A stretch of DNA of 14,504 nucleotides from Escherichia phage Bf23, in the sequence record NC_042564.1, one strand, 5' to 3'. Of the stretch, positions 935-14,224 are shown in pieces. Position 1 is the first letter of the stretch; each line of letters starts with the position of its first letter. Under the pieces are notes generated by a model. It saw only the letters and a program-made list of their open reading frames with translations, was not told the origin of the DNA and made no database searches. The position numbers and the translations under genes were made by a program.

Positions 935-1011
935 TGGTAGTTAGTAGTGGATTTGAACCACTGTAGTCGCTCCGTATGAAGGAGGTGCATAACCACTCTG
1001 CCAACTAACTA
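935..1011 (-). tRNA. tRNA-Met (anticodon CAT; could be elongator Met, initiator or Ile2-lysidine type)
   Basis: minus strand; encoded CCA (tgg 935-937), T-arm agtgg/atttgaa/ccact, acceptor 939-945 pairs with 1005-1011, anticodon loop TTCATAC with one mismatch in the anticodon stem. Confidence 0.6.
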
Positions 1012-1106
1012 TTATGTTTTACTAGACTAAGTAAGTATTCTTTGTACTCTTTAGACCAATTAGCTTTTTTAAACTTTCCTGGACGCATAGTCTTAATTCC
1101 TAGATT

Positions 1107-1183
1107 TGGTACTCCGGGAGGGATTTAAACCCCCGATCTCTCGGTTATCAGCCGAGTGCTTTAGATCGCTAAGCTACCGAAGT
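1107..1183 (-). tRNA. tRNA-Ile (anticodon GAT)
   Basis: encoded CCA, T-arm with loop TTTAAAT, perfect anticodon stem ctcgg/ccgag with loop CTGATAA, D-stem gctt/aagc, 7-bp acceptor with one G-U. Confidence 0.75.
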
Positions 1184-1184
1184 A

Positions 1185-1391
1185 TTAACATTTAATTGCA
1201 GAACGTTTACCATTTCTAGGCGCACCTGGAAGTCGTGCACGTTCTGCCATTCTTCGCTTAATCTTTGAGATATTTTCTAGTGTTTGTTCTTCAGGCTTAA
1301 TACCTGAAACACTACACCACTGATTACCATCCCATGCGGTAATGATCATAACACCATTACTCATGATCTTTTCTGTAAAAGTAATCCTCAT
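1185..1391 (-). CDS. hypothetical small protein (68 aa), translationally coupled to upstream ORF
   Basis: ORF track 1185-1412; ATG at 1389-1391 overlaps the TAA stop of ORF 1391-1684 (TAATG); longer start would require in-gene initiation. Confidence 0.4.
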   Translation of the reverse strand: MRITFTEKIMSNGVMIITAWDGNQWCSVSGIKPEEQTLENISKIKRRMAERARLPGAPRNGKRSAIKC

Positions 1392-1684
1392 TATAGCAAC
1401 TCGTCTAAGCAAGAGGTATAATGGAATTTAGCTTCTCCAGTCTTATCTATTTCTACCTCAGTTCGTGGTACTTGACGAACTACACCATGAATCATCTTAT
1501 AGCGAACGCCTTTAGCTGGTTCATGATCTTTTGGAAATACTTGTTTGACCGTTACTACTTTATACTCTTCACGCGGTGTTAATACAACTACTTGATCACC
1601 CTCTTTGATTTTCCAGGAAGATGGAAATTCATAGGTATACCTTTGGCCACCAGTTTGGAATACTACAGAAAGATAACGTTTCAT
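1391..1684 (-). CDS. hypothetical protein, 97 aa
   Basis: ORF track; ATG at 1682-1684 with GAGGG SD; located just downstream of promoter 1715-1743. Confidence 0.55.
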   Translation of the reverse strand: MKRYLSVVFQTGGQRYTYEFPSSWKIKEGDQVVVLTPREEYKVVTVKQVFPKDHEPAKGVRYKMIHGVVRQVPRTEVEIDKTGEAKFHYTSCLDELL

Positions 1685-1714
1685 TTGGTTTCCCTCTCAT
1701 TAATTTATATAAAT

Positions 1715-1743
1715 ATTATAACAAGAAATAAGAGAGAATGCAA
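1715..1743 (-). promoter_or_regulatory. sigma70 promoter (T5 early-promoter-like)
   Basis: minus strand TTGCAT (revcomp 1738-1743) - 17 nt - TATAAT (revcomp 1715-1720), A/T-rich UP region, conserved motif aatgaatttttaa shared with other copies. Confidence 0.65.
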
Positions 1744-1758
1744 ATGAATTTTTAAGTT

Positions 1759-1833
1759 TGGTGCTCCCACTAGGAATCGAACCCAGCTCAGATGCTTACA
1801 AGGCAACTGCATCGCCAACAATGCTTTAGGAGC
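1759..1833 (-). tRNA. tRNA-Thr (anticodon TGT)
   Basis: encoded CCA (1759-1761), T-arm ctagg/aatcgaa/cccag, D-stem GCAT/ATGC, anticodon loop CTTGTAA, acceptor with one G-U; one U-U mismatch in anticodon stem. Confidence 0.6.
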
Positions 1834-1843
1834 GATAATCCCA

Positions 1844-2008
1844 TTATTTCAATGGGATTTCTTTTTCAAATACAGGGGATTTATCTGACATTACTGTCAT
1901 TGCCAACTGCTGAAGAAACTCGAAAGTTAGCTTTAAACGTTCTTCGCCTAATTCAACCTCAACGTATTTCTTTTGTTTGTCAACCTTTAATTTTAGGTTA
2001 TCAGCCAT
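1844..2008 (-). CDS. possible small ORF (54 aa), overlapping stop of upstream ORF
   Basis: ATG at 2006-2008 overlapping TGA of ORF 2001-2222 (ATGGCTGA); weak SD; below ORF-track size cut-off. Confidence 0.3.
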   Translation of the reverse strand: MADNLKLKVDKQKKYVEVELGEERLKLTFEFLQQLAMTVMSDKSPVFEKEIPLK

Positions 2009-2222
2009 CTTCGGATTCTCGTTGCTCAGCTACTGCTAGCCAGTCTGGTAAAAGAAACTTAGTACGAAACTCTTCATAAGATTCTTCTGGATAAAAGCTA
2101 AAACCTCCTTTCTCATCATTCAAGATAACAGAGCCGTCAGTTTGTTCATATGCTCGATATGTTTCTCCAATAATGATAACTCGCTTATCAGTACTTTTAT
2201 TACGAAACTCAAAAACGTGCAT
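2001..2222 (-). CDS. hypothetical protein, 73 aa
   Basis: ORF track; ATG at 2220-2222 with AAGGAAA SD. Confidence 0.5.
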   Translation of the reverse strand: MHVFEFRNKSTDKRVIIIGETYRAYEQTDGSVILNDEKGGFSFYPEESYEEFRTKFLLPDWLAVAEQRESEDG

Positions 2223-2238
2223 AACGTTTCCTTAAAGT

Positions 2239-2314
2239 TGGAGCGGCTAGAGGGAATCGAACCCTACTCAGCGAGGCTTGGAAGGCCTGCGACACAACCC
2301 GTGTGCTTAACCGC
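2239..2314 (-). tRNA. tRNA-Gly (anticodon TCC)
   Basis: encoded CCA, T-loop TTCGATT, anticodon loop CTTCCAA (plus-strand aggc/ttggaag/gcct), acceptor 2243-2249 pairs 2308-2314 with one G-U. Confidence 0.6.
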
Positions 2315-2322
2315 TTATTGTT

Positions 2323-2398
2323 TGGCTGGAGAAGGAGGAGTCGAACCTACCATTAACGGAGTCAAAGGCCATTGTGTTAACCGTTACACTACTCTCCA
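2323..2398 (-). tRNA. tRNA-Gln (anticodon TTG)
   Basis: encoded CCA, U1-A72 and G73 as in bacterial tRNA-Gln, D-stem GTGT/ACAC, anticodon loop CTTTGAC; anticodon stem has C31-U39 mismatch. Confidence 0.55.
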
Positions 2399-2404
2399 AT
2401 TATT

Positions 2405-2480
2405 TGGCTGGAGTGCCTGGGATCGAACCAGGAACCTTCGGAGTCAGAGGCCGACGATCTGCCAATTGATCTACACTCCA
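2405..2480 (-). tRNA. tRNA-Gln (anticodon CTG)
   Basis: encoded CCA, perfect T-arm cctgg/gatcgaa/ccagg, perfect 7-bp acceptor (2409-2415/2474-2480), D-stem GATC/GATC, anticodon loop CTCTGAC; same C31-U39 mismatch as its neighbour. Confidence 0.6.
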
Positions 2481-2489
2481 AGAATGCTA

Positions 2490-2726
2490 TTAACTAGACA
2501 CTGGTTCTGCTGGCTGAGATACGGCAGGCTGTTCTAATGTATCTGGTGCTGATACAGAGAAAAGAGCTTGTAATGCTGCAATATCACGCTCGTAAGTTTC
2601 AATACGAGTAGTAAGAGTATCTACCATCTGTTTATGATAGGCTAAGTTATTCTGAGATTCATCTCGAAGAGTTTGCAGTTCTGCAAGACGTGTTAACATA
2701 ATTTCACTAATTAAAGCATTACTCAT
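2490..2726 (-). CDS. hypothetical coiled-coil protein, 78 aa
   Basis: ORF track; ATG with AGGAGA SD; start overlaps stop of 2719-2916 (coupled). Confidence 0.5.
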   Translation of the reverse strand: MSNALISEIMLTRLAELQTLRDESQNNLAYHKQMVDTLTTRIETYERDIAALQALFSVSAPDTLEQPAVSQPAEPVSS

Positions 2727-2916
2727 TTGTTTCTCCTAAATTTTCCGGTTCTTCTAAACGTTTGCCTTCATGATCTACTCGAATAACTCCGCATCCTTCG
2801 CAAACCACAACTGCACCATAACCTTCTTTGACTTCGGCTTCTGTAATCAGACCAGATAAGTCACCAGTATCTCTGCCCCACATATCAATGGAGCATTGTT
2901 TGCAGAAATCAGCCAT
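2719..2916 (-). CDS. hypothetical zinc-ribbon-like protein (two CxxC pairs), 65 aa
   Basis: ORF track; ATG at 2914-2916 with AGGAAA SD; CKQC ... CEGC motif. Confidence 0.55.
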   Translation of the reverse strand: MADFCKQCSIDMWGRDTGDLSGLITEAEVKEGYGAVVVCEGCGVIRVDHEGKRLEEPENLGETNE

Positions 2917-2941
2917 ATTTTATTTCCTATTTAAGTTAATT

Positions 2942-3018
2942 TGGGGTGGCTAGTGGAATTCGAATCCACATAGGCCTGATTCACAATCAGGATCATTAAC
3001 CAATTATGATATAGCCAC
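2942..3018 (-). tRNA. tRNA-His (anticodon GTG)
   Basis: encoded CCA, C73 discriminator, perfect T-arm gtgga/attcgaa/tccac, perfect anticodon stem cctga/tcagg with loop TTGTGAA, perfect acceptor 2946-2952/3012-3018. Confidence 0.8.
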
Positions 3019-3132
3019 AATTGAAAACTCGCAGGGTTAGCGAAACCATCCTCAATTAGCATGTTCTAGAATACTAATCAAGTTATCTCCTATTGCACGC
3101 AGCTCAAGACGAGTACGAATTTTCAATTGTGG
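3015..3132 (-). ncRNA. candidate structured RNA / precursor-processing stem flanking the 5' end of tRNA-His
   Basis: 17-nt inverted repeat ccacaattgaaaactcg (3015-3031) vs cgaattttcaattgtgg (3116-3132), one mismatch, enclosing 84 nt with no credible ORF; the first arm includes the first 4 nt of tRNA-His. Confidence 0.3.
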
Positions 3133-3247
3133 CGGCTCTCAGAAACTCTTCTATTCTAGCCCCAGAAGCTTACCCCCGAACGCCTGTCGGGAAAGTCTTT
3201 CCAAGAGCATCAAATAGCACCGTTACACTTTGAGCCATTGATATATC

Positions 3248-3332
3248 AAGGAACAGAAGGATTTGAACCTTCACGAGATAGACCATTTATCTCAACCGCT
3301 TTTAAGGTATATTTCTAGGAGTGGATGTTCCT
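3248..3332 (-). tRNA. tRNA-like gene, class II length (85 nt), isotype undetermined (possible Leu-TAA) or pseudogene
   Basis: perfect T-arm gaagg/atttgaa/ccttc and perfect 7-bp acceptor (3249-3255/3326-3332) but no canonical anticodon stem; CCA not encoded; contains hairpin agata/gaccatt/tatct. Confidence 0.35.
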
Positions 3333-3386
3333 AGTAAACCTATTCGGCAGTCCCGTCTACCAATTCCGGCATATTCCAAGAATTTT

Positions 3387-3560
3387 TTATAAACCAGCAG
3401 AAGCCTCATTTAAAGCATCAACAATAGCTTCACGCTGGGTCATTCCATACCCGGTGGAGTCTAGGTGAGGCAAATAGGCTGCCCACCCATTATCTGTTTC
3501 ATGAAGGAATGCTTTAAATTTTTTACCGTCCTTCATTGTTACAGTAACTGTTTTGCTCAT
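3387..3560 (-). CDS. small ORF (57 aa), possibly HicB/UPF0150-like fold
   Basis: ATG at 3558-3560 with AAGGAA SD; translation ...ETDNGWAAYLPHLDSTGYGMTQREAIVDALNEASAGL resembles the HicB N-terminal domain pattern; below ORF-track size cut-off. Confidence 0.4.
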   Translation of the reverse strand: MSKTVTVTMKDGKKFKAFLHETDNGWAAYLPHLDSTGYGMTQREAIVDALNEASAGL

Positions 3561-3580
3561 AAGGATTCCTTATAGTTAAT

Positions 3581-3670
3581 TGGAGGAAGGTAATGGAGTC
3601 GAACCATCACCGTATCACTACAGCGGGCTAGTTTTCAAGACTAGTTGCGTACCACTACGCCCTACCTTCC
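3581..3670 (-). tRNA. tRNA-Ser (anticodon TGA)
   Basis: 90 nt with long variable arm; encoded CCA; perfect anticodon stem ctagt/actag with loop CTTGAAA; perfect acceptor 3585-3591/3664-3670. Confidence 0.65.
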
Positions 3671-3677
3671 ATTTGTT

Positions 3678-3768
3678 TGGCGGAAGAGGAGAGATTTGAA
3701 CTCTCAAGCCGTTTTACCAGTCAGCCACTTTCCAAGCGGTTTTCGTCGCCAATTCGATTTGCTCTTCC
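3678..3768 (-). tRNA. tRNA-Ser (anticodon GGA), tentative
   Basis: 91 nt class II; encoded CCA, G73; perfect T-arm gagag/atttgaa/ctctc; perfect acceptor 3682-3688/3762-3768; anticodon loop TTGGAAA with one mismatch in stem; 3-bp D-stem. Confidence 0.5.
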
Positions 3769-3801
3769 AATAATAAGATGATGCCTCTATCACACCAGGC
3801 A

Positions 3802-3880
3802 GTTACGCCTCGCTGGGATTCGAACCCATTAAAACAGCTCAACCGAGATAGTAGGTTTAATTTACTCTGACCATCAAATT
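3802..3880 (-). other. orphan T-arm-like element (degenerate tRNA remnant?)
   Basis: tggg/attcgaa/ccca T-arm-like hairpin at 3814-3828 but no pairing partner for an acceptor stem and no anticodon arm. Confidence 0.25.
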
Positions 3881-3957
3881 TGGTGCGTGACAAGGGATTC
3901 GAACCCTCAAAACCCGACTTCTAAGGACGGTATGTATGCCAATTCCATCAATCACGC
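3881..3957 (-). tRNA. tRNA with anticodon TAG (Leu-type anticodon) on a short-variable-arm scaffold; isotype uncertain
   Basis: encoded CCA, T-arm aaggg/attcgaa/ccctc, acceptor 3885-3891/3951-3957 with one G-U, anticodon loop CTTAGAA with one U-U mismatch in stem, 3-bp D-stem, only 5-nt variable loop. Confidence 0.4.
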
Positions 3958-3962
3958 GTATT

Positions 3963-4036
3963 TGGTGGAGAAAGAGGGAGTTGAACCCTCGTTTTCTGCG
4001 TGCAAAGCAGATGTTCTACCATTAAACTATATCCCC
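3963..4036 (-). tRNA. tRNA-Ala (anticodon TGC)
   Basis: encoded CCA, perfect T-arm gaggg/agttgaa/ccctc, perfect anticodon stem tctgc/gcaga with loop TTTGCAC, acceptor shows G3-U70 (Ala identity pair) plus one mismatch. Confidence 0.65.
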
Positions 4037-4062
4037 AAATTCTTTAGTTTACTAAGGCTATT

Positions 4063-4230
4063 AGCTCGGCGTAACTATAGCACCTTCGCTTCGAGCGGAA
4101 GGAACTACGTCATCTCGCAAACCCGATACACTATTCAGTTGCCGCTGAATCTAGTGGACTAATCTAGAACCTCTCCCAAATCGTAGGGATCGTGCTTTTT
4201 GGCAGCCAGTCCTAGGTCGAGCTAATACCT
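4063..4230 (-). ncRNA. candidate structured RNA in promoter-proximal leader (no ORF)
   Basis: long-range inverted repeat ggctattagctcgg (4063-4076) vs gtcgagctaatacc (4217-4230) enclosing about 140 nt with internal hairpins (ttcag/ctgaa 4133-4148; ctag/ctag); no ORF with RBS. Confidence 0.3.
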
Positions 4231-4274
4231 TAGTGAACTATGATGAGGATTTCCCCTCATCAATTTATATAAAT

Positions 4275-4303
4275 ATTATAACAAGAAATTAAGCATTAAG
4301 CAA
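4275..4303 (-). promoter_or_regulatory. sigma70 promoter (T5 early-promoter-like)
   Basis: minus strand TTGCTT (revcomp 4298-4303) - 17 nt - TATAAT (revcomp 4275-4280); A-run upstream; 8-bp hairpin tgatgagg/cctcatca (4241-4262) immediately downstream of predicted start. Confidence 0.7.
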
Positions 4304-4409
4304 CTGCGTTTTTGAAATTTCTTGGACTTGGTACTCGGTGATAGAATCTAACTATCGCAACCGCCGTGTAAAGACGGGGTTCTCTCATTAAACTAACCGA
4401 GCAAAAATT

Positions 4410-4487
4410 TGGTGGATTGCCTGGGATTCGAACCCAGAACTGACGGATTAAAGGTCCGCTACTCTTATCCAGTTGAGCTAGCAATCC
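4410..4487 (-). tRNA. tRNA-Lys (anticodon TTT)
   Basis: encoded CCA, perfect T-arm ctggg/attcgaa/cccag, perfect acceptor 4414-4420/4481-4487, D-arm GCTC/GAGT, anticodon loop CCTTTAA (C at position 33). Confidence 0.6.
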
Positions 4488-4951
4488 AAATTCTCTACTA
4501 ATAGTTTGAAAGCGTCTAACAGAGGTACTTCAAACCATTCTCCTGATACTTTGTAGTCTTTCAGAAGATTATGTAATGCTTTTTCAGTTCTTCTCTTGTC
4601 CGAGGAGAATCTAAAATGGTATAACTTGTAATCACGATATGGCGAATATGTTTGATAACTAGACAGTCTTTCATTTACGTCTACTGTCATACCTATCTTA
4701 TAGAGTCCAGGCCATGCTGGGTTACCTATTACATATACAAACCCTTCTGTTATAGGGATTTTATGCTCCCTTTTATACTTCAGCAGGTTTAACGCTGCCA
4801 TTCTATAACAGAACTTAAACTCTGAGGATTTTAGTTTACCTTCTTTACCAGATATTTCGTTATACTTCTCCATATACCTACGTATTAAGGAGTCAGTAAT
4901 AGTAAAGTGCTTTGGAAGATCCAGGGCTTGAAGTACACTGTTAATAAGCAT
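4478..4951 (-). CDS. T5orf172-family (GIY-YIG-like) domain protein, 157 aa; putative homing-type nuclease
   Basis: ORF track; motif GFVYVIGNPAWPGLYKIGMTVDVNERLSSYQTYSPYRDYKL typical of the T5orf172 domain; AAGGAAG SD; paralog of 6749-7267; 3' end overlaps 5' end of tRNA-Lys. Confidence 0.8.
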   Translation of the reverse strand: MLINSVLQALDLPKHFTITDSLIRRYMEKYNEISGKEGKLKSSEFKFCYRMAALNLLKYKREHKIPITEGFVYVIGNPAWPGLYKIGMTVDVNERLSSYQTYSPYRDYKLYHFRFSSDKRRTEKALHNLLKDYKVSGEWFEVPLLDAFKLLVENLDC

Positions 4952-5105
4952 AAACTTCCTTAATAGAATGGACTTTTAAGTAAGAATGATTAATCCCAAA
5001 CTCCGCCATTACTTCTTTTTCATCTTTTCCATAATGTGCAAGTAAGGATCTTGAGGTATTATTACCTAAACGTTTGTCACTTACTACTAATCGAAATACT
5101 TTCAT
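4941..5105 (-). CDS. possible small ORF (54 aa)
   Basis: ATG at 5103-5105 with GAGGA SD 7 nt upstream; stop overlaps start region of 4478-4951; below ORF-track cut-off. Confidence 0.35.
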   Translation of the reverse strand: MKVFRLVVSDKRLGNNTSRSLLAHYGKDEKEVMAEFGINHSYLKVHSIKEVYAY

Positions 5106-5125
5106 TTCGAAATCCTCTATTAAAA

Positions 5126-5203
5126 TGGAAGCGGGTGCAGGAATCGAACCTACCTCTTTCTAGCTTATGAGACTAGCGATCTCTACCAGAGATCTAACCC
5201 GCA
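5126..5203 (-). tRNA. tRNA-Met-type (anticodon CAT), possibly initiator-like (position 1-72 unpaired)
   Basis: encoded CCA, T-arm gcagg/aatcgaa/cctac (one G-U), anticodon loop CTCATAA, acceptor 6 bp plus unpaired terminal pair. Confidence 0.55.
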
Positions 5204-5209
5204 ATTGTT

Positions 5210-5285
5210 TGGTCAGTGCGGCAGGACTCGAACCTGCGACCCGAAGCATCCAAGGCTCCCACGCTACCAACTCCGCTACGCACTG
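5210..5285 (-). tRNA. tRNA-Pro (anticodon TGG)
   Basis: encoded CCA, perfect T-arm gcagg/actcgaa/cctgc, perfect acceptor 5214-5220/5279-5285, anticodon loop CTTGGAT. Confidence 0.65.
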
Positions 5286-5316
5286 TTAATTTTTGTTAAC
5301 TCACTTTATAAAATAT

Positions 5317-5345
5317 ATTATACAGATAATTAAGCATAATAGCAA
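5317..5345 (-). promoter_or_regulatory. sigma70 promoter (T5 early-promoter-like)
   Basis: minus strand TTGCTA (revcomp 5340-5345) - 17 nt - TATAAT (revcomp 5317-5322); conserved flanking motif cagataattaagca / aatgaatttttaa. Confidence 0.7.
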
Positions 5346-5372
5346 ATGAATTTTTAATAAATTTACTTATTG

Positions 5373-5472
5373 TGTAGGCCACCTGGGGGCTATCAACCCC
5401 ACGGCTGACAAAGAAGTTTGCGAGACTTCTCTTAAAAGCCAGAATAGACCCGCCGATCTATCGGAACCTACA
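5373..5472 (-). ncRNA. tRNA-like cloverleaf element (about 100 nt), noncanonical; strand uncertain
   Basis: outer stem tgtagg(5373-5378)/cctaca(5467-5472) enclosing three hairpins: ggggg/cccc (5385-5400), agaagt/acttct with 7-nt loop (5412-5430), ccga/tcgg (5453-5464); no TTCGA T-loop, no CCA. Confidence 0.3.
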
Positions 5473-5620
5473 TAATAAGTAAACTTTCGTTTACTTACAC
5501 CTACTTGGTCAGGAGGATTTTCAGCGACTAGAACCGGCCGGAAACTTATCGCCTTGTTTTACTACCACCTTACGGACGCACAAGTTGTTACACGAATGCG
5601 CAAGCTCGGTTTGGTAGATT

Positions 5621-5694
5621 TGGTGCGGTCGGAGGGAATCGAACCCCCAACTTCTGGTTGGCAACCAAAAATTATACCCTTTAACTACGAACGC
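5621..5694 (-). tRNA. tRNA-Gly (anticodon GCC)
   Basis: encoded CCA, T-arm gaggg/aatcgaa/ccccc, anticodon loop TTGCCAA with G-U in stem, acceptor with one mismatch. Confidence 0.55.
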
Positions 5695-5703
5695 AAAATA
5701 AGT

Positions 5704-5824
5704 CATTCTAGGCAGGATTCGAACCTGCTATCACTTGTGCGGACTTACGAGAACCATTCTTTCACTCGAATCGAACGAGCTTCTGCCCTAGCCAAGCTGG
5801 TTTCCCCATCAACCACGCTAGAAT
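5704..5824 (-). ncRNA. composite tRNA-like element with two T-arm motifs (disrupted or expanded tRNA?)
   Basis: perfect T-arm gcagg/attcgaa/cctgc (5712-5728) and perfect 7-bp acceptor-like pairing attctag(5705-5711)/ctagaat(5818-5824), but 121 nt long with a second T-arm-like ctcg/aatcgaa/cgag (5765-5779) and no canonical anticodon arm. Confidence 0.3.
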
Positions 5825-5946
5825 GTTTGATTGTTTTCAGTGCAAGAGTCCGAGTCTTGGACACGACCGCTTCGCAAGTACATAGGCAGCTTATCATGAG
5901 TCAGCACTTCCGAATTGCTAGCTCCGTGTTCTGCACTGAAATTTTA

Positions 5947-6294
5947 TTAGTTTAACCGGAAAGTATTATCTACTTCACCATTAATTGTTCGGCATTCCTC
6001 TGGGATTGTCGGAGTGGCCTTGTATTCCCACCACTCAGCACCGTCATACTCCCCACGTTCTAGCCAAGTTCCATCGGCAAACCATACATTACCATAAAGT
6101 AATTGTCCACCGTATCCAGAATCATATTCAAAGTCTAGGTTATTAAGAAAATCCTCAATATCTTCTTCTGTATAGCCTAAAGGTAGTACCCAAACTTTTT
6201 TATCCCCATAATACCCGAATTCTATTTTAATACACTTAACTTCAGAATTAGTATTTTTTAAGGCAAGTAACAACTCTTCTTTGGCATTACGCAT
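5947..6294 (-). CDS. hypothetical protein, 115 aa
   Basis: ORF track; ATG at 6292-6294; Trp/Tyr/Gly-rich; weak SD. Confidence 0.55.
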   Translation of the reverse strand: MRNAKEELLLALKNTNSEVKCIKIEFGYYGDKKVWVLPLGYTEEDIEDFLNNLDFEYDSGYGGQLLYGNVWFADGTWLERGEYDGAEWWEYKATPTIPEECRTINGEVDNTFRLN

Positions 6295-6319
6295 AGTATA
6301 TTCTCATACTGAATTATTT

Positions 6320-6396
6320 TGGCGCGACCGATGGGATTTGAACCCACATTCTCTCCCGTGACAGGGGAGTACCATTACCAAGCCAGCCCCGGTCGC
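6320..6396 (-). tRNA. tRNA-Asp (anticodon GTC)
   Basis: encoded CCA, G73, T-arm atggg/atttgaa/cccac, perfect anticodon stem ctccc/gggag with loop CTGTCAC, perfect acceptor 6324-6330/6390-6396. Confidence 0.75.
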
Positions 6397-6405
6397 ATAA
6401 TTTAT

Positions 6406-6591
6406 TTACTCAGCTTTGAGTTTTTCAATAGCTGCATTAAGTTCTTTAAGAAACTCTTTTCGTACATTAAGACGATTGAGACTTACTAGTATATCATGTT
6501 TAAGTTCTTCGATGTATTTCTTCTCAACTTCAATATTGTTGATAGTGCTATCACGATGAACCTCTAGCTGTGCAATTACGTTCTTAGACAT
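6406..6591 (-). CDS. hypothetical coiled-coil protein, 61 aa
   Basis: ORF track; ATG with GAGGAAA SD. Confidence 0.5.
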   Translation of the reverse strand: MSKNVIAQLEVHRDSTINNIEVEKKYIEELKHDILVSLNRLNVRKEFLKELNAAIEKLKAE

Positions 6592-8396: not shown

Positions 8397-8403
8397 GTAT
8401 TAG

Positions 8404-8679: not shown

Positions 8680-8709
8680 TAGTTAACTCCTTCATCAATT
8701 TATATAACT

Positions 8710-8739
8710 ATTATATCAGAAATTTAAAGCAAAAGGCAA
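8710..8739 (-). promoter_or_regulatory. sigma70 promoter (T5 early-promoter-like, weaker -35)
   Basis: minus strand TTGCCT (revcomp 8734-8739) - 18 nt - TATAAT (revcomp 8710-8715); A-run upstream. Confidence 0.55.
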
Positions 8740-8769
8740 GTACATTTTTAAAAATTCTATTCGGAGGAG

Positions 8770-8976
8770 CTAAACTCCAGATTCTTCGGCCAAGTCTAGG
8801 CTAATAAGAGTTATAGCCATAATTGCTGCACCGTGTTCTTTTTCTCCGGTGTTTTTAGCAGAGTCTATAATATCCTTAATCTGCTCGTAATAACTTTTTA
8901 CTTCTTGTTCAATGCCCGCCTCGGCTATCATGCCTTTAGTCATGAGTCGTTGCATGGTAATTTCAGGATTAGCCAT
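8770..8976 (-). CDS. hypothetical protein, 68 aa
   Basis: ORF track; ATG at 8974-8976 with GGAGAAA SD. Confidence 0.5.
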   Translation of the reverse strand: MANPEITMQRLMTKGMIAEAGIEQEVKSYYEQIKDIIDSAKNTGEKEHGAAIMAITLISLDLAEESGV

Positions 8977-9136
8977 GTTGTTTCTCCAGTTTCATTTTTA
9001 ATAGTTTACAAATGAAGTCAATATCTTCATCTGTGCCTAAGTCTCTATCCTCAAGGGTCGCCTTGAAGTTTTTCGTCAATTCCATGAGGATGACCTCTCT
9101 AGAACGACGTGTTGGTGGCGGAGGAGGTCTATACAT
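8969..9136 (-). CDS. possible small ORF (55 aa, or 38 aa from an internal ATG)
   Basis: ATG at 9134-9136 with AAGGAA SD; stop overlaps start of 8770-8976 (ATGGCTAA); Pro-rich N-terminus makes the longer form doubtful. Confidence 0.3.
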   Translation of the reverse strand: MYRPPPPPTRRSREVILMELTKNFKATLEDRDLGTDEDIDFICKLLKMKLEKQHG

Positions 9137-9165
9137 CTTAATTCCTTAATTTGGTAGGGGTTATA

Positions 9166-9849
9166 TCATCTATTTTTCTTAATACTTTTAGGATCTTTCC
9201 CTGTTAGGGACTTATACCTTTTCCTTAATCCAGTATCAGACAATCCTAGTTCTTTGGAGGCACGAATCCAGGAATATTTAGATACCCAGTACTCTATTTG
9301 CTCCACAGTAATATCTGGATTTATAGTTATCTCTTTAGGAGTACATGATTTACAGTGTGTTGCTCTTGAGCTAATTTCGCAGTGACAAATAGCACACGTA
9401 TTTACAGTCCTTTCTGTATACCTGCCAATATTTTTGCCTGCATGAGTAGGTGTTAGTGCATGGCAATTTGGGCATAGGAGGGCTAAGTTATCCCATTCAT
9501 TATTATAGTGATTTCCATCCTTATGTTCAAGTTCTAAAGGAATTGGTTTATCTAACCAACTTTCTAAGCCACAACTCTCACATTTATGTGGTTTTAGCCC
9601 CTCGTTAAGAATTTTATTCTTTAGTTTATAGGAAGAAATAGGGCTGCCGTTATATAAATACTCTGTTGCAGACTTATATTTATTATCATACTGCCTATTC
9701 GCAGGGATAACTACTATTCCTAGTTTTCCTAAATATGCTTCCAAAGTGTTCGAGGAGCAGGATAGCATTCTTGCTATCTCTGCTTTAGATTTTCCCTGAG
9801 CTATCCACTGAGCTATTTCTTCCTTTCTATCTAGTATATCAGTTCTCAT
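9166..9849 (-). CDS. HNH homing endonuclease with HTH-like regions and an extra Cys/His cluster, 227 aa
   Basis: ORF track; HNH motif CESCG ... LELEHKDGNHYNNEWDNLALLCPNCHA; additional CAICHC ... HCKSC; helix-turn-helix-like segments at both ends. Confidence 0.85.
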   Translation of the reverse strand: MRTDILDRKEEIAQWIAQGKSKAEIARMLSCSSNTLEAYLGKLGIVVIPANRQYDNKYKSATEYLYNGSPISSYKLKNKILNEGLKPHKCESCGLESWLDKPIPLELEHKDGNHYNNEWDNLALLCPNCHALTPTHAGKNIGRYTERTVNTCAICHCEISSRATHCKSCTPKEITINPDITVEQIEYWVSKYSWIRASKELGLSDTGLRKRYKSLTGKDPKSIKKNR

Positions 9850-9872
9850 AGTTTATGACTTTTTAATTAAGT

Positions 9873-9950
9873 TGGTGGCTCCCCGAGGATTCGAACCTAC
9901 GTACCTTCCAGTTATGAGCTGGGTGCTCATACCATATGAGCTTGAGAACC
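9873..9950 (-). tRNA. tRNA with anticodon CAT (Met, initiator or Ile2 type)
   Basis: encoded CCA, acceptor 9877-9883/9944-9950 with two G-U, D-arm gctc/gagc, anticodon loop CTCATAA; T-stem has only 3 good pairs. Confidence 0.5.
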
Positions 9951-9956
9951 AGAATT

Positions 9957-10045
9957 TGGCGGAAGAAGTGGGAATCGAACCCACAAGGCTATATTTCAAA
10001 CCGACAGATTAGCAATCTGCTGCAATACCGTTATGCTATTCTTCC
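9957..10045 (-). tRNA. tRNA-Ser (anticodon GCT)
   Basis: 89 nt class II, encoded CCA, G73, perfect T-arm gtggg/aatcgaa/cccac, perfect acceptor 9961-9967/10039-10045, anticodon loop TTGCTAA. Confidence 0.65.
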
Positions 10046-10059
10046 GAATTTATAAATAT

Positions 10060-10088
10060 ATTATATTAGAAATTTAGCTTCATAGCAA
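10060..10088 (-). promoter_or_regulatory. sigma70 promoter (T5 early-promoter-like), inside 3' end of CDS 10066-10584
   Basis: minus strand TTGCTA (revcomp 10083-10088) - 17 nt - TATAAT (revcomp 10060-10065); A-run upstream. Confidence 0.65.
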
Positions 10089-10584
10089 GAAAATTTTTCA
10101 AGTTTTCGGTAGACATCTCATCCACATCTACAGGGGAAACAAACCCATTTAACTGTCTAGCAAACTTTTCGCCAGCAGGATCATTATCCCCAACAGCTAC
10201 CAATTTAAAAGGTAGTAATTTCAATTGCTTTAATAGCGCTTTTCCTGGAGAAGAACCCAACATTGCCAGGGCTGGATAACCAGCGTTATGTAACGCAACT
10301 GCCTTAAATACAGATTCAGCAATCAATACTACTTTTTCATCTCCATTGAGAGTTTCTAGTCCCCATACACACTGTGTAGTAGAATAAGTAAAATATCTAG
10401 CCTCAAAGGGGCACTTACCATGACCTTTTGGAGCAGAAGGATTATAAGTCTGATAGCCTCTCAACATCCCAGAGAAGTCATACAATGGGACTGTTAGCCA
10501 TCCTTCCGGGCTTAACCAGCAATGATATTTATCTGTATCAAATCCTCTAGATAAGAGATGTTCTGTTAGTTCATCAACAGTCAT
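10066..10584 (-). CDS. Toprim-domain protein (DnaG/OLD/RNase M5-type fold), 172 aa
   Basis: ORF track 10066-10635; ATG at 10582-10584 has GAGAGAGGAA SD and lies downstream of the promoter start, whereas the ORF-track ATG at 10635 lies within the promoter; motifs VVLIAESVFKAVALHNAGYPALAMLGS and LVAVGDNDPAGEKF (conserved Glu and DxD). Confidence 0.7.
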   Translation of the reverse strand: MTVDELTEHLLSRGFDTDKYHCWLSPEGWLTVPLYDFSGMLRGYQTYNPSAPKGHGKCPFEARYFTYSTTQCVWGLETLNGDEKVVLIAESVFKAVALHNAGYPALAMLGSSPGKALLKQLKLLPFKLVAVGDNDPAGEKFARQLNGFVSPVDVDEMSTENLKNFLAMKLNF

Positions 10585-10614
10585 ATTAGATTCCTCTCTC
10601 AAATTTATAAATAT

Positions 10615-10643
10615 ATTATACAGAGAATTTAGCATTCAAGCAA
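10615..10643 (-). promoter_or_regulatory. sigma70 promoter closely resembling classic coliphage T5 early promoters
   Basis: minus strand reads aaaaaattcaaTTGCTTgaatgctaaattctctgTATAATatatttataaatttgagagaggaa; as I recall it, T5 PN25 shares TTGCTT -35, CTGTATAAT, and the initial transcribed motif ATAAATTTGAGAGAGGA. Confidence 0.8.
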
Positions 10644-10759
10644 TTGAATTTTTTAACTTTTTAGAGGAAAATCACAGGATGCTTAAGGGTAGCAGGTAAG
10701 TGGTCAGGACCGAAATTTGTGACCCCACTAAAAATCTGGGGGCAATTTTTAAAGACCCC

Positions 10760-10788
10760 TTGACATTTTAGCCGGGGTAGTATAAAGT
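10760..10788 (+). promoter_or_regulatory. putative sigma70 promoter of the plus-strand cassette (divergent from 10615-10643)
   Basis: perfect -35 TTGACA (10760-10765); -10 candidates TATAAA (spacer 15) or TAAAGT (spacer 17); about 60-nt leader before AGGAGG SD. Confidence 0.55.
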
Positions 10789-10850
10789 ATATGTTATGGA
10801 TGAGTGATCAAAGAGACACACATTTTCTATATACTAGGAGGTGTCAAAAA

Positions 10851-11831
10851 ATGACAGAAGAAGTAGCTAAGAGTCCTGAAACCGTCGCTAGCGTAGCAGC
10901 AGAACTGCATCGTCACGAGGAATCAGATAAGAAAAAGTGGGAGAACGTCAAAGCCTACGAAGAAGAACATCGTGTTCACGATGATAAAGATGAAGAAGAT
11001 GACGATGATGAACATTGTCATAAATATGGAAAACATAAAATGCAAGAACCAGTAAACGTATTTACTAACGGCTTCCCTGGCATGGGTGCATTCCCAGCTA
11101 ATGCAAGTGCTTTCGGTGGAGAAGGTATGGGCCTATTCGGAGCTATCCTAATCGGTGCTCTATTAACAGGCGGATTTGGTGGTTTTGGTGGTTTTGGTCG
11201 CGGTGCTGGTGTTGCCGCTGAAGGAACCGCTGTGGACGCGATCCTTTCTAACCAAGATACTGCAAGTATTCTAGCTGCAATCAATACTACTCGTACAGAA
11301 GCTAATCAGGGCACCGGGGCTGTTCTAAGCGCAGTAAACGGTGTGGGAGCTGCTCAAGCTGCTAGCACTCAGCAAGTTCTGACTACTATCTACGGTACAG
11401 GTGCTAATCTGTCAAACCAGATCTGTGCTGAAACTCGTAACGTTATTCAGGGTCAGTTCGATCTTTCTCGTCAGATGGATCAATCTTTCGCTGCTAACCA
11501 GATCGCACGTGCTCAAGATAAGTTTGACTCTGCTCAGATTGCTTTCCAGCAGTCTATTCAGACTAACAACCAGTTTGCCGCTGTTCAGGCTCAGATGTGT
11601 GCTAACCAGAATGCTATCGAACGTCAGCTTGCCGAATGTTGCTGTGAGCTTCAGACTGCGATCGCTGGTGTAACTACTGCACGTATCCAGGACGAACTGA
11701 ATGAATGCCGTCTGCGCGAAGCAATCGCTGCAGGTAGCGGTGCAAATGGTCAGGTAATCAACCAAATCGCTGTAAGTCTTGGTGCTATCACTCAGACTCT
11801 GGCTGGTCTGCAGGCTAAACTGCCGGCTTAA
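10851..11831 (+). CDS. hypothetical low-complexity protein, 326 aa: acidic His-rich N-terminus, Gly-rich hydrophobic segment, Gln/Ala-rich helical C-terminal region with Cys cluster (ECCCE)
   Basis: ATG at 10851 with AGGAGG SD 9 nt upstream (ORF-track start 10791 lies within the promoter/leader); GGFGGFGGFG segment; opposite-strand ORFs 11018-11284 and 11412-11894 look like antisense artefacts; codons look E. coli-optimal by eye. Confidence 0.7.
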   Translation: MTEEVAKSPETVASVAAELHRHEESDKKKWENVKAYEEEHRVHDDKDEEDDDDEHCHKYGKHKMQEPVNVFTNGFPGMGAFPANASAFGGEGMGLFGAILIGALLTGGFGGFGGFGRGAGVAAEGTAVDAILSNQDTASILAAINTTRTEANQGTGAVLSAVNGVGAAQAASTQQVLTTIYGTGANLSNQICAETRNVIQGQFDLSRQMDQSFAANQIARAQDKFDSAQIAFQQSIQTNNQFAAVQAQMCANQNAIERQLAECCCELQTAIAGVTTARIQDELNECRLREAIAAGSGANGQVINQIAVSLGAITQTLAGLQAKLPA

Positions 11832-11852
11832 AATTAAGGGGAGGAGCCCATT

Positions 11853-12269
11853 ATGAGTAAATATGGTTTTGTAAACAACGGATTTAATCAACAAATGGGC
11901 TCCCAGCAGCCCGTTCCTGGTCTGGATAATCCTTACCTACAACAGTTGCAACAGCATTTAGCAGAAGCGCAACAGATGCAGCAACAACTCCAGCAAAACC
12001 CTGGAAGTGTGAGTCCTATGCAAATGATGCAGCAAATGAGCGGGCAGTCGCAAATGCCTCAACAAATGCAGCAACAGGTGCCTCAGCAGCAAGTTCAGCA
12101 ACAAACCCAACAACCGCAGGTTTCTGCGGAAGGACAGGCAGTACTAGCCCTTTTCGAAGATTTCGCAAAGACAGAGGATGGGAAACAGCTTGTATCACTT
12201 ATGGGTAAGTTTAATAGCTTCTGCCAAAGCCAAGTTGCAAAAGCTCAAAATGGTGGTAATAACTCCTAA
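11853..12269 (+). CDS. hypothetical Gln-rich (prion-like composition) protein, 138 aa
   Basis: ORF track; ATG with GGGGAGGAG SD; 21 nt after the stop of the upstream gene; long Q/M/P-rich tract then short structured C-terminus. Confidence 0.65.
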   Translation: MSKYGFVNNGFNQQMGSQQPVPGLDNPYLQQLQQHLAEAQQMQQQLQQNPGSVSPMQMMQQMSGQSQMPQQMQQQVPQQQVQQQTQQPQVSAEGQAVLALFEDFAKTEDGKQLVSLMGKFNSFCQSQVAKAQNGGNNS

Positions 12270-12278
12270 GGAGGAATT

Positions 12279-12473
12279 ATGTGTTGCAGAAAATCTGTTT
12301 CGTGCTGCCCAATGCCTGTAGCACGTTGTTGCTCTCCAGCAATGTTTACACAAATACCGGCGTTCAATCCCTTTGCCTTTAAGCCTACTCTTATCCTGCC
12401 CCCTAGAGTAGATTTTCAGTCAAGATTGGCCTCCCGTATGGGTGGTTGCTGTAATAAGAGTATATGGTTCTAA
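12279..12473 (+). CDS. hypothetical Cys-rich small protein, 64 aa (four CC doublets)
   Basis: ORF track; ATG with AAGGAGG SD that overlaps the TAA stop of the upstream gene; followed by rho-independent terminator. Confidence 0.55.
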   Translation: MCCRKSVSCCPMPVARCCSPAMFTQIPAFNPFAFKPTLILPPRVDFQSRLASRMGGCCNKSIWF

Positions 12474-12488
12474 AGAACCAAACAATAA

Positions 12489-12524
12489 AGCCCCTAGTCG
12501 AAAGACTTAGGGGCTTTTCTTTTA
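12489..12524 (+). terminator. rho-independent terminator of the plus-strand cassette
   Basis: GC-rich hairpin agcccctagtc / gacttaggggct followed by TTTTCTTTT. Confidence 0.7.
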
Positions 12525-12536
12525 TCTTAAGTACAG

Positions 12537-12576
12537 AAAAGCCCTGCGCTCTCCAGGGAACGCAGGGCTTACTTCG
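12537..12576 (-). terminator. rho-independent terminator downstream of SPFH gene (convergent with 12489-12524)
   Basis: hairpin agccctgcg / cgcagggct; on the minus strand it is followed by TTTTCTGT. Confidence 0.65.
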
Positions 12577-12593
12577 AATATTACGTGTGGGTA

Positions 12594-13541
12594 TTACTTG
12601 TTACGCATATCCATAATCATCTGGCCATCGTAACCAGTGCCAACTACTGTTTGCGGTACACCACCTTGATATTTCTGAGCACGAATCATTTCAACTTCTA
12701 GTTGTTTCCAACGAATCATCTCAGGAGTAATAGTACGTTGCAGAGCGGCGTTAGCTTCAGCTTCTTTCTTAGCTGCGTACAGTTTAGCATCTGCATCACG
12801 TTCGTTTGCAATAGCTTGGTTGTTACGAGCTTCACGATCTGCTTCTGCTTGTTTAACCTTCTGCTGTGCTTCTTGTTCAACACGAGCCAATTCAGCTTTC
12901 GCAGCATTAACTTGTTCTTCACGAACTTTGGTATTCTGTACCTGTTCCATAATTACCGGTGGCAATGTAATATCCTGAAGGAACACTTGCTTAACTGTGT
13001 AACCATAAGGGCGTGCGTACTCTTCAACTTCCTGCTGAATTGCAGTTTGCAATTGTGCTTGAATTTTAGCATCAAACAAATCTTGTGCTTTAGGTACAGA
13101 CTTACCAAACTCACGAATAGTAGATAGTAATTTCTCAGTTACATACTTATCTAGAGCCTGATCCTGGGTGCCTGCGTTAATACGGTTAATCGGTGCCTTA
13201 GAACCATCAAATTGTAACATAACAGTCAGGTCAACAGTGGATTTAAACTTATCCTGGCTAGGAACCTGAAGTTTATCTAATTTTACAGCAATATCTTTTG
13301 TACTAAAAGTATCGAAAGATGCAAATGGGTTTACAAGATGGAAACCAGGTAATACTGGGTTAGGATCTACTTTACCTAGAAATGTTTGGGTTTTAACCGT
13401 ACCATCAGAAACAATAGTATATGAATTAAAAGCTAGGATTAAACCTGCTAAACCAACTACAGCACCAATACCCCAACGTTTAATAGTGCGAATTACTTTT
13501 TGCTCAGAAGTCAGTTCTTTCATATTTTTAGTATTAAACAT
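12594..13541 (-). CDS. SPFH/band-7 (stomatin/prohibitin/HflK-HflC-like) membrane protein, 315 aa
   Basis: ORF track; ATG with AAGGAA SD; N-terminal transmembrane helix (WGIGAVVGLAGLILAF), SPFH-like core, C-terminal Ala/Glu/Gln-rich coiled coil. Confidence 0.8.
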   Translation of the reverse strand: MFNTKNMKELTSEQKVIRTIKRWGIGAVVGLAGLILAFNSYTIVSDGTVKTQTFLGKVDPNPVLPGFHLVNPFASFDTFSTKDIAVKLDKLQVPSQDKFKSTVDLTVMLQFDGSKAPINRINAGTQDQALDKYVTEKLLSTIREFGKSVPKAQDLFDAKIQAQLQTAIQQEVEEYARPYGYTVKQVFLQDITLPPVIMEQVQNTKVREEQVNAAKAELARVEQEAQQKVKQAEADREARNNQAIANERDADAKLYAAKKEAEANAALQRTITPEMIRWKQLEVEMIRAQKYQGGVPQTVVGTGYDGQMIMDMRNK

Positions 13542-13575
13542 ATATTTCCTTTGTTTTAGTTACAGTTAATAAAAT

Positions 13576-13650
13576 TGGCCGAGGTGACAGGATTCGAACC
13601 TGCATAAAGGAATTTAGAAGACTCCTGCCTCTCCCTTAGACTACACCCCG
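13576..13650 (-). tRNA. tRNA-Arg (anticodon TCT), tentative
   Basis: encoded CCA, T-arm acagg/attcgaa/cctgc, acceptor 13580-13586/13644-13650 with G-U, anticodon loop CTTCTAA with G-U in stem; D-arm poorly defined. Confidence 0.5.
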
Positions 13651-14152
13651 TTTAAGTATTTTTAAGAACTCTCGTAAAAACTCTTAAAAATACAGACGAT
13701 ACCGGGAGAGTCATAAGTCTCACTCATTAAGTATTTCAAGACAAAATACAGTAACGTCTATTATTTTCCAGTTTAAGTCAAGGTGACTTAGTGGTTATGT
13801 CCTGCGGTATGCTGAGGACTCGGTTAGGCTAGGGTCATGACTCCCCACCTTTTTGCTGCTACTCAACAGGAGTTATCGCGAATTACCTGTGCTATTGTGC
13901 ACCATTAGTGGCATCTCTCATGCCAGCATTTCCCACTTTGTGGATAGTTTGAAAAACTACTCCGATATGGAGAAAGAACTTCACTATCCTAGAATACCTT
14001 CTAAAGTTCTTCTTTAGCCTGGACATAGTTAAATCGTAATAAAACTATTCAGCAGACTGGTTGGTTAGTCTGGAACCAACTACCGCGTGGTTTAGGCAGT
14101 GCGCAACTAACCTCGGAAGCTTTTACGTTAAAAGCATCAGTTATCCAGTTCT

Positions 14153-14224
14153 TACCGTCCGTAGGATTCGAACCTACATCTTCCACCAGTTACGGCTTGA
14201 TAATACCAATTATACTAGGACGGC
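14153..14224 (-). tRNA. tRNA-like gene, isotype undetermined (possible pseudogene)
   Basis: perfect T-arm gtagg/attcgaa/cctac (14161-14177) and 6-7 bp acceptor pairing (14154-14160/14218-14224) but no recognizable anticodon stem; CCA not encoded. Confidence 0.35.

Follow-up and report, generated by a model that had tools for sequence, protein, structure and literature searches.

What is a bacteriophage doing with some two dozen transfer RNA (tRNA) genes, and why do nuclease genes interrupt them? The question is raised by a 14,504-nucleotide (nt) stretch of Escherichia phage BF23 DNA (NC_042564.1; 'the window' below is this whole stretch), for which a preliminary description, made from the letters alone, had proposed a dense minus-strand array of about 27 tRNA and tRNA-like genes interleaved with nuclease genes. 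We hold with high confidence that this is the BF23 tRNA cluster, with tRNAs that fit the phage's codons and tRNAs that act against host defences, and with nuclease genes that probably spread between them by homing. The tRNA cluster, stable RNAs, promoters and F-Tfl homing endonucleases of T5 and BF23 are already known and the sequence is public, NC_042564 being a separate record of the BF23 tRNA region (PMC10644984). As a discovery the region matters little, being usual for these phages and having long been sequenced and annotated; it is a good positive control, in that someone working from the letters alone correctly found the array and its strand, the CCA ends and the nuclease genes. It is also topical: tRNA-cleaving defences are neutralised by T5-family tRNAs, as recent studies of PARIS and retron Ec78 show, so that allele differences between BF23 and T5 are candidates for host-nuclease evasion.

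The window was aligned directly with the 2023 BF23 genome (OR083247), compared feature by feature with the T5, BF23 and Salmonella phage 5 annotations, and run by megablast against 50,697 phage records. OR083247 is 99.889% identical over positions 1-9910 and 100% identical over 14163-14502, and two sub-regions of the window match it at 100%, so the window is the BF23 tRNA region. It is the tRNA gene cluster that this coliphage, a Tequintavirus closely related to T5, has in its early region. Only Tequintavirus genomes matched at high coverage, among them VAH1 (95% coverage, 95.4% identity) and T5 (87% coverage, 96.3% identity). The tRNAs, stable RNAs, promoters, hegA, Toprim protein and Band_7 protein mapped across from T5 or phage 5, and the order of tRNAs, stable RNAs, promoters, hegA, T5.069, Toprim, Band_7 and RNAX is the same in T5 (AY543070, 26.7-41.6 kb); this synteny and the megablast matches bear out the T5-type architecture that the preliminary description had named. 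OR083247 shares with the window the tRNAs (bar a deleted segment), hegA and the T5orf172 open reading frames (ORFs).

With default settings, ARAGORN called 23 tRNAs, every one on the minus strand, spanning 935 to 14225, in agreement with the limits first given for the array (935-14224). Rfam RF00005, with a gathering threshold of 29 bits, found 23 loci at 33-71.5 bits and E-values down to 3e-14. Neither predictor therefore returned far fewer genes than had been described. Their union is 24 (Rfam adds 9876-9950 and ARAGORN adds the Tyr gene at 8126-8213), and 24 same-strand calls in 14.5 kb are far beyond chance. Default thresholds miss three T5-annotated homologs, Gly-UCC, Ser-GGA and a Trp-like element, which were found by alignment to T5; the first two are also called by ARAGORN with -ps80, the third by alignment alone. 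These bring the total of tRNA and tRNA-like elements to 27, the number first estimated, of which the Tyr gene (ARAGORN only), Gly-UCC, Ser-GGA and the Trp-like element lie below the Rfam threshold. No tRNAs were found on the plus strand or at positions outside 935-14225. An encoded 3′ CCA is present in 26 of the 27, and the description had likewise seen it in nearly all.

Twenty-three of the genes look fully functional, with anticodons CAU (three genes), GAU, UGU, UUG, CUG, GUG, UGA, UAG, UGC, UAC, UUU, UGG, GCC, GUC, GUU, GCA, GAA, UUC, GUA, GCU and UCU. Gly-UCC and Ser-GGA are non-canonical yet conserved tRNAs, and the Trp-like (ACA) element and a tRNA-like element inside RNAX are two decayed elements. 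U33 is present in 24 of 25 canonical genes, the exception being Lys, which has C33. The elements are as follows, with identities to T5 unless phage 5 is named.

935-1010, minus strand: tRNA-Met (CAU), elongator; ARAGORN, Rfam 51.5 bits; 76/76 (tRNAM)
1107-1183, minus strand: tRNA-Ile (GAU); ARAGORN, Rfam 65.5 bits; 77/77
1759-1833, minus strand: tRNA-Thr (UGU); ARAGORN, Rfam 47.3 bits; 72/75
2239-2315, minus strand: tRNA-Gly (UCC), non-canonical D arm; ARAGORN -ps80, weak Rfam match at 2242-2315; identical (tRNAG1)
2323-2398, minus strand: tRNA-Gln (UUG); ARAGORN, Rfam 46.8 bits; 49/76, phage 5 73/76
2405-2480, minus strand: tRNA-Gln (CUG), intact; ARAGORN, Rfam 58.5 bits; 47/76, phage 5 76/76
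2942-3018, minus strand: tRNA-His (GUG); ARAGORN, Rfam 59.9 bits; identical
3581-3670, minus strand: tRNA-Ser (UGA); ARAGORN, Rfam 33.1 bits; 90/90
3678-3768, minus strand: tRNA-Ser (GGA), BF23/phage 5 allele; ARAGORN -ps80; 68/91, phage 5 tRNAS2 91/91
3881-3957, minus strand: tRNA-Leu (UAG), 77 nt; ARAGORN, Rfam 47.5 bits; 56/77, phage 5 tRNAL1 77/77
3963-4036, minus strand: tRNA-Ala (UGC); ARAGORN, Rfam 71.5 bits; 53/74
4329-4402, minus strand: tRNA-Val (UAC); ARAGORN, Rfam 53.1 bits; 69/74
4410-4487, minus strand: tRNA-Lys (UUU), C33, loop CCUUUAA; ARAGORN, Rfam 59.9 bits; 58/78
5126-5203, minus strand: tRNA-fMet (CAU), initiator by T5 annotation, U1.U72 mismatch; ARAGORN, Rfam 43.6 bits; 78/78 (tRNAfM)
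5210-5285, minus strand: tRNA-Pro (UGG); ARAGORN, Rfam 57.7 bits; 51/76
5621-5694, minus strand: tRNA-Gly (GCC), in segment 5488-5701; ARAGORN, Rfam 57.5 bits
6320-6396, minus strand: tRNA-Asp (GUC); ARAGORN, Rfam 49 bits; identical
6695-6772, minus strand: tRNA-Asn (GUU); ARAGORN, Rfam 55.4 bits; 78/78, phage 5 53/78
7289-7364, minus strand: tRNA-Cys (GCA); ARAGORN, Rfam 48.5 bits; identical
7882-7956, minus strand: tRNA-Phe (GAA); ARAGORN, Rfam 45.8 bits; identical
7963-8033, minus strand: Trp-like degenerate element, anticodon position ACA; alignment to T5 'tRNA-Trp'
8043-8119, minus strand: tRNA-Glu (UUC); ARAGORN, Rfam 61.9 bits
8126-8213, minus strand: tRNA-Tyr (GUA); ARAGORN, sub-threshold Rfam; 88/88
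9873-9950, minus strand: tRNA with CAU anticodon, homolog of T5 tRNA-Ile2; Rfam 38.2 bits, ARAGORN -ps80; 78/78 (tRNAI2)
9957-10045, minus strand: tRNA-Ser (GCU); ARAGORN, Rfam 60.5 bits; identical
13576-13650, minus strand: tRNA-Arg (UCU); ARAGORN, Rfam 49.3 bits; identical
14152-14225, minus strand: tRNA-like element inside RNAX; ARAGORN, Rfam 39.6 bits; 70/74

All isotypes named in the preliminary description were found, with one correction among the three CAT genes that it gave to Met: by T5 annotation these correspond to elongator Met (935-1010), initiator fMet (5126-5203) and Ile2 (9873-9950). Ser tRNAs are present as it stated, although the element at 14152-14225, with ACT at the anticodon position, is tRNA-like and not a Ser tRNA. 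A tentative Phe call proved to be a tRNA-Phe (GAA) gene, and the tRNA with a TAG anticodon is the Leu-UAG gene at 3881-3957. The statement that no clean Leu or Val tRNA was present does not hold: the Leu-UAG gene is clean, and a tRNA-Leu is annotated in BF23, VAH1 and phage 5, while Val-UAC (4329-4402) is a clean call. Trp, also missed as a clean gene and thought to be noncanonical or outside the window, has a decayed homolog inside it (7963-8033). An A directly follows CCA in 25 of the 26 encoded ends, usually as CCA-A-A/T, and the spacers between adjoining tRNAs are 5-8 nt long and AT-rich. Together, the CCA-A flank and AT-rich spacers may form a conserved 3′-processing context.

How would these genes be expressed, and to what end? 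Nine minus-strand copies of a conserved 57-67-nt promoter module (direct-repeat families D1, D5, D6 and D8) coincide with the lifted-over T5 promoters P11 to P16-17 and with the best sigma-70 matches, which score 10/12 at five of the nine modules; this points to several early polycistronic transcripts across the region. Going by the T5 annotation, host RNA polymerase would transcribe it early into several transcripts carrying both tRNAs and ORFs, from which, according to that annotation and the literature, host RNases would release the tRNAs. Since CCA is encoded, no CCA addition would be needed. The mature tRNAs would then have two roles: to supply one reader per codon family, suited to the A/T-ending codons of the phage, and to replace host tRNAs lost to defences that target tRNAs.

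The first role draws on codon usage. The window has a G+C content of 40%, and 70% of its 2928 ORF codons end in A or T. The shares of CUA (Leu), AGA (Arg), AUA (Ile) and GGA (Gly) within their codon families are 22%, 25%, 19% and 22%, respectively; each of the four has a cognate phage tRNA, and all are rare codons in E. coli. Codon usage and tRNA set thus fit codon compensation. This role might even suffice by itself, with the tRNAs serving an AT-rich phage in a GC-richer host and having no part in defence; most four-codon boxes are indeed served by a single U34 tRNA. We consider so restricted a role unlikely, if deserving of serious weight. Codons outside the rare class, GAA, AAA and CAG among them, also have tRNAs in the cluster, and deletion of many tRNAs leaves T5 viable in the laboratory (as cited in PMC11464382). 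The PARIS nuclease AriB leaves the tRNA-Lys of T5 uncut, and this tRNA rescues infection (PMC11464382); T5-family tRNA-Tyr and Rad are reported, in a preprint (bioRxiv 10.1101/2023.03.15.532788), to inhibit retron Ec78. BF23 tRNA-Tyr is identical to that of T5 at 88/88 positions, but BF23 tRNA-Lys at only 58/78. Rad, an anti-retron protein, is a T5 TOPRIM-domain ORF (PMC10644984), and positions 10066-10635 encode a Toprim-domain protein 171/172 identical to T5.076. A cluster that serves both codon usage and defence therefore remains the reading that we prefer.

The second half of the question concerns the interrupting genes. The preliminary description named two T5orf172 GIY-YIG paralogs and an HNH endonuclease, and Pfam matches to the paralogs and orthology of the third gene to T5 hegA agree with it.

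4478-4951, minus strand: T5orf172/MUG113 putative homing endonuclease, 157 amino acids; Pfam; 157/157 against VAH1; absent from T5 and phage 5
6749-7267, minus strand: T5orf172/MUG113 putative homing endonuclease, 172 amino acids (T5.069); Pfam; absent from phage 5
9166-9849, minus strand: hegA, HNH endonuclease F-TflIV with an N-terminal helix-turn-helix (HTH); 225/227 identical to T5 hegA

The third gene is annotated as hegA in BF23. Pfam finds a GerE HTH in its product and HNH_3 at 16.8 bits, under the cutoff of 24.8, and the HNH motif ELEHKDGNHYNNEWDNLALLCPNCH is seen in its translation. The two T5orf172 ORFs are 50% identical to each other, and both match T5orf172 (47.6-54.7 bits, cutoff 20) and MUG113 (59.3-69.5 bits, cutoff 22.3) with E-values of 1e-12 to 4e-19. 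We take these two families (PF10544 and PF13455) to belong to the GIY-YIG clan. Residues invariant in 26 T5orf172 homologs include G75, Y78, K90, G92, R100 and E142, which may represent the catalytic residues of GIY, YIG, Arg and Glu, and NCBI names one homolog 'GIY-YIG nuclease family protein'.

Could the T5orf172 proteins instead be DNA-binding regulators or anti-defence proteins that do not home? Their identity as nucleases is putative, drawn from family membership. The predicted structure matches GIY-YIG nucleases modestly, which is weak support for the fold, and places the N-terminal 70 residues in a separate helical domain; a search of the PDB with the ORF and the family profile gave no useful match to a solved structure. 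We nevertheless judge this alternative improbable. Pfam scores for both families are well above cutoff, the putative catalytic residues are invariant in all 26 homologs, a homolog carries a GIY-YIG nuclease name, both genes are present or absent at fixed inter-tRNA sites in close relatives, and occupancy of the slot beside Lys goes with a different tRNA-Lys allele.

These last points come from comparing four genomes (BF23, T5, VAH1 and phage 5), across which six nuclease slots are polymorphic.

Slot after Gln-CUG, hegD (F-TflII): absent in BF23, present in T5, absent in phage 5; VAH1 has a 582-nt ORF there, not compared with hegD
Slot between Leu and Ser-GGA, hegC (F-TflI): absent in BF23, present in T5, a different ORF in VAH1, absent in phage 5
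Slot before Lys, first T5orf172 gene: present in BF23, absent in T5, present in VAH1, absent in phage 5
Slot before Pro, hegB (F-TflIII): absent in BF23, T5.066 instead in T5, a 159-nt ORF (the length of T5.066) in VAH1, present in phage 5
Slot between Asn and Cys, second T5orf172 gene (T5.069): present in BF23, T5 and VAH1, absent in phage 5
Slot before Ile2, hegA (F-TflIV): present in BF23, T5 and VAH1, absent in phage 5

T5 thus has hegD, hegC and T5.066, all three of which BF23 lacks, while BF23 has an extra T5orf172 gene (4478-4951), tRNA-Gly-GCC, an ORF at 1185-1391 and an intact Gln-CUG gene, which in T5 is a pseudogene overlapped by hegD. The tRNA alleles themselves also differ. Fourteen BF23 tRNAs are identical to T5 base for base, whereas identity falls to 62-75% in seven others: Gln-UUG, Gln-CUG, Ser-GGA, Leu, Ala, Lys and Pro (at 2323-2480, 3678-4036, 4410-4487 and 5210-5285). 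All seven lie at most two genes from a slot whose occupancy differs between BF23 and T5, and none of the 15 tRNAs elsewhere is divergent (hypergeometric p ~2.5e-4 for this post hoc count). Such a pattern would follow from cutting of the empty allele by a nuclease, with co-conversion of the flanks during repair, or from flanks diverging to resist cutting.

The nuclease genes (F-TflIV and the two T5orf172 paralogs) most probably spread during co-infection: the nuclease would cut a relative's allele that lacks its gene, and repair would then copy the nuclease gene together with the adjoining tRNA alleles. Copying of flanking alleles would explain why cassette-like tRNA differences occur only beside slots that differ in occupancy. 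The F-Tfl genes are homing endonucleases of the T5 tRNA region (PMC10644984, PMC2330249), and the same two papers cite empty-allele cleavage and biased inheritance for F-TflI, II and IV (crediting Akulenko 2004). The arrangement of the ORFs adds a further parallel. Both T5orf172 ORFs end in the 5′ part of the next tRNA: the stop codon of ORF 4478-4951 lies inside tRNA-Lys (4410-4487), and the 3′ end of ORF 6749-7267 overlaps tRNA-Asn (6695-6772) by 24 nt. T5 hegC and hegD and phage 5 hegB also end inside the next tRNA. RNase P processing of the tRNA 5′ end would therefore cut off the stop codon, and tRNA processing as a brake on nuclease expression has been discussed for T4 segB and the T5 F-Tfl genes (PMC2330249). 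Like BF23, T4 has a free-standing GIY-YIG-type nuclease gene, segB, within its tRNA cluster; the segB ORF, like the T5orf172 ORFs, ends at or inside the next tRNA, so that processing may limit expression, and the T4 tRNA region is preferentially inherited in mixed infections (PMC2330249). T4 differs in belonging to an unrelated lineage with eight tRNAs, against ~25 in BF23, and SegB activity was shown by experiment, whereas the BF23 T5orf172 proteins are known from sequence.

Several points weigh against our account of the cluster. The function of the tRNAs in BF23 is carried over from T5 by analogy. At 20 of 78 positions BF23 tRNA-Lys departs from the T5 allele that resists PARIS, and it retains an E. 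coli-like A31-U39 pair, so PARIS resistance cannot be assumed for it. The statistic relating slots to allele divergence was defined post hoc, on data already inspected. Over the whole promoter scan, the 37 sites are no enrichment on the 34.3 expected from shuffles, and only the repeated modules stand out.

Candidate alleles for evasion of host nucleases are the C33 tRNA-Lys, the short-arm tRNA-Leu and the divergent tRNAs beside polymorphic nuclease slots. The tRNA-Lys gene (4410-4487) adjoins the T5orf172 gene at 4478-4951. U33 is near-universal in tRNAs, and the T5 and phage 5 Lys alleles have it, whereas the BF23 allele has C33. VAH1 matches this allele at 100% identity and 76 phage records (T5-like and Epseptimavirus) at 99% or more, so that it is conserved and not a sequencing error. 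Residue 33 lies directly 5′ of the wobble base, where PrrC-type anticodon nucleases cut, and the C33 tRNA-Lys may be a variant that evades an anticodon nuclease. An IMG/VR scan with the U33 version of the BF23 Lys anticodon arm returned more than 120 unrelated contigs and was uninformative on T5-like phages, because the arm is a generic tRNA-Lys arm.

A long variable arm is a defining feature of bacterial Leu tRNAs. The cloverleaf of BF23 Leu-UAG, 77 nt long, has a 5-nt variable loop, A73 and a Leu-type D arm; VAH1 and phage 5 share this short-loop form, whereas the T5 gene is 85 nt long with a long variable arm. The 5′ halves of the BF23 and T5 genes are homologous, and six of seven acceptor pairs have changed with full complementarity kept. 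The 311-nt region around the gene is at least 99% identical in 108 phage records. It is tempting to suppose that nuclease-driven cassette exchange shuffles functionally distinct tRNA alleles that escape host tRNA-cleaving defences, with the nuclease genes as vehicles of their spread from one co-infecting phage to another. This proposal, doubtful as it stands, draws on the C33 tRNA-Lys that travels with the T5orf172 gene at 4478-4951 and the short-arm Leu-UAG at a slot free of hegC.

Other elements are less intact. The 71-nt Trp-like element is called neither by ARAGORN, even with relaxed thresholds, nor by Rfam in the window, T5 or VAH1, and the T5 annotation notes that its counterpart is not convertible into a suppressor. 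Its anticodon position reads ACA in BF23 but CCA in T5 and VAH1, and OR083247 carries the same base there as the window. The ACA variant occurs in no IMG/VR contigs, the CCA variant in four; the tRNA-Trp that phage 5 carries here, 77 nt long, is unrelated. The BF23 element is a probable decaying pseudogene. ARAGORN labels the 14152-14225 element 'Ser(act)', and both its acceptor stem and its T arm are good, but its anticodon loop is aberrant (N33 = A, N37 = G) and no CCA is encoded; it is therefore tRNA-like, and we rejected it as a real tRNA-Ser (ACU). The Leu/Ser-GGA spacer (3769-3880, 112 nt, minus strand) is the site where T5 has hegC. It contains at ~3800-3835 (minus strand) a hairpin that resembles a T arm, GGGTTCGAATCCC, but stands alone, neither an acceptor stem nor an anticodon arm being there to match it; this is probably a tRNA remnant. 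Pairwise comparison of the 14152 element, the Trp-like element, RNA2, RNA3 and the 3769-3880 remnant with all tRNAs of the window revealed no clear parent gene, identities (48-68%) being those of the tRNA-to-tRNA background.

The region has also been lost in part. OR083247 lacks 4277 bp that the window retains (~9902-14178). The deletion junction is a 15-nt direct repeat, AGGATTCGAACCTAC (plus strand), whose copies at 9887-9901 and 14164-14178 form the T arms of tRNA-Ile2 and the tRNA-like element at 14152-14225. Lost with the segment are the Ser-GCU and Arg-UCU genes, those for the Toprim protein (Rad per PMC10644984) and the Band_7 protein, and three plus-strand ORFs; what is left at the junction is a chimeric tRNA without function. 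A ~4-kb loss in BF23 has been suggested to come from flanking nucleases (PMC10644984); recombination between the two tRNA T arms would be a simpler explanation. The loss appears to be specific to one laboratory stock.

Taken together, the Trp-like element that both predictors miss, the CCA-less element, the T-arm remnant and a stock that has lost 4.3 kb could be taken to mean that the array consists in large part of remains without function, tRNA pseudogenes and recombination scars that persist only because the region is dispensable. We think this quite improbable: 23 genes score above the curated Rfam threshold, the 14 tRNAs shared base for base with T5 sit in surrounding DNA that is ~96% identical, divergent alleles such as Leu keep full acceptor complementarity despite changes at six of seven positions, and encoded CCA is kept in 26 of 27 elements. 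The idea of a bacterial tRNA island or prophage remnant, as opposed to a region of a virulent phage, has nothing but tRNA gene density in its favour and is ruled out for practical purposes by the 99.9-100% BF23 identity and by high-coverage matches to T5-like phages alone. When the Ile2 and Leu genes (77-78 nt) were run by BLAST against 5,426 E. coli genomes, nothing matched even with an E-value limit of 10, a null result of little power and uninformative because such queries are too short for that database.

The remaining features of this phage tRNA cluster are stable RNA homologs, promoters and small ORFs, interspersed among the tRNAs. All eight T5 stable RNAs (RNAI, III, IV, 1, 2, 2H, 3 and X) lift over to the window, with 91-100% of positions mapped and ~1.8 kb in total. 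In T5 they are annotated as observed 'stable RNAs with unknown functions'.

3020-3125, minus strand: RNAIII homolog; T5 liftover
3130-3236, minus strand: RNAI homolog; T5 liftover
3237-3380, minus strand: tRNA-like RNA1 homolog; T5 liftover
4056-4227, minus strand: RNA 2H homolog; T5 liftover
5371-5473, minus strand: RNA IV homolog; T5 liftover and fold
5702-5825, minus strand: tRNA-like RNA2 homolog, two T-arm motifs; T5 liftover
6619-6692, minus strand: putative tRNA-like RNA3 homolog; T5 liftover
13651-14434, minus strand: homolog of the RNAX non-coding region; T5 liftover, no minus-strand ORF above 45 amino acids

Against Rfam, they matched no family other than tRNA. RNAIV and RNAIII have cloverleaf-shaped folds larger than a tRNA (z = -3.3 and -2.3, respectively). 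RNA1 has a sub-threshold tRNA match (25.9 bits) and looks like a Leu-type long-arm tRNA with its anticodon arm replaced by a long hairpin. The promoter modules, placed by repeats and liftover, are homologs of T5 early promoters.

1689-1763, minus strand: P11
4249-4323, minus strand: P13b
5301-5364, minus strand: P13a
7545-7619, minus strand: P14b
8310-8385, minus strand: P14a
8684-8758, minus strand: P15c
10034-10108, minus strand: P15b
10589-10663, minus strand: P15a
~14422-14496, minus strand: P16-17

Two further products were identified: a GrcA-like glycyl-radical cofactor (553-921, Pfam Gly_radical) and an SPFH/Band_7 membrane protein (12594-13541). Three segments set the window apart from T5. 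The first, 5488-5701 (214 nt), carries tRNA-Gly (GCC) and is absent from T5 and VAH1; the second, 1192-1402 (211 nt), is absent from T5 and carries ORF 1185-1391 (phrog_9814), which phage 5 also has; the third is a 149-nt insertion relative to T5 at 14281-14429, within RNAX.

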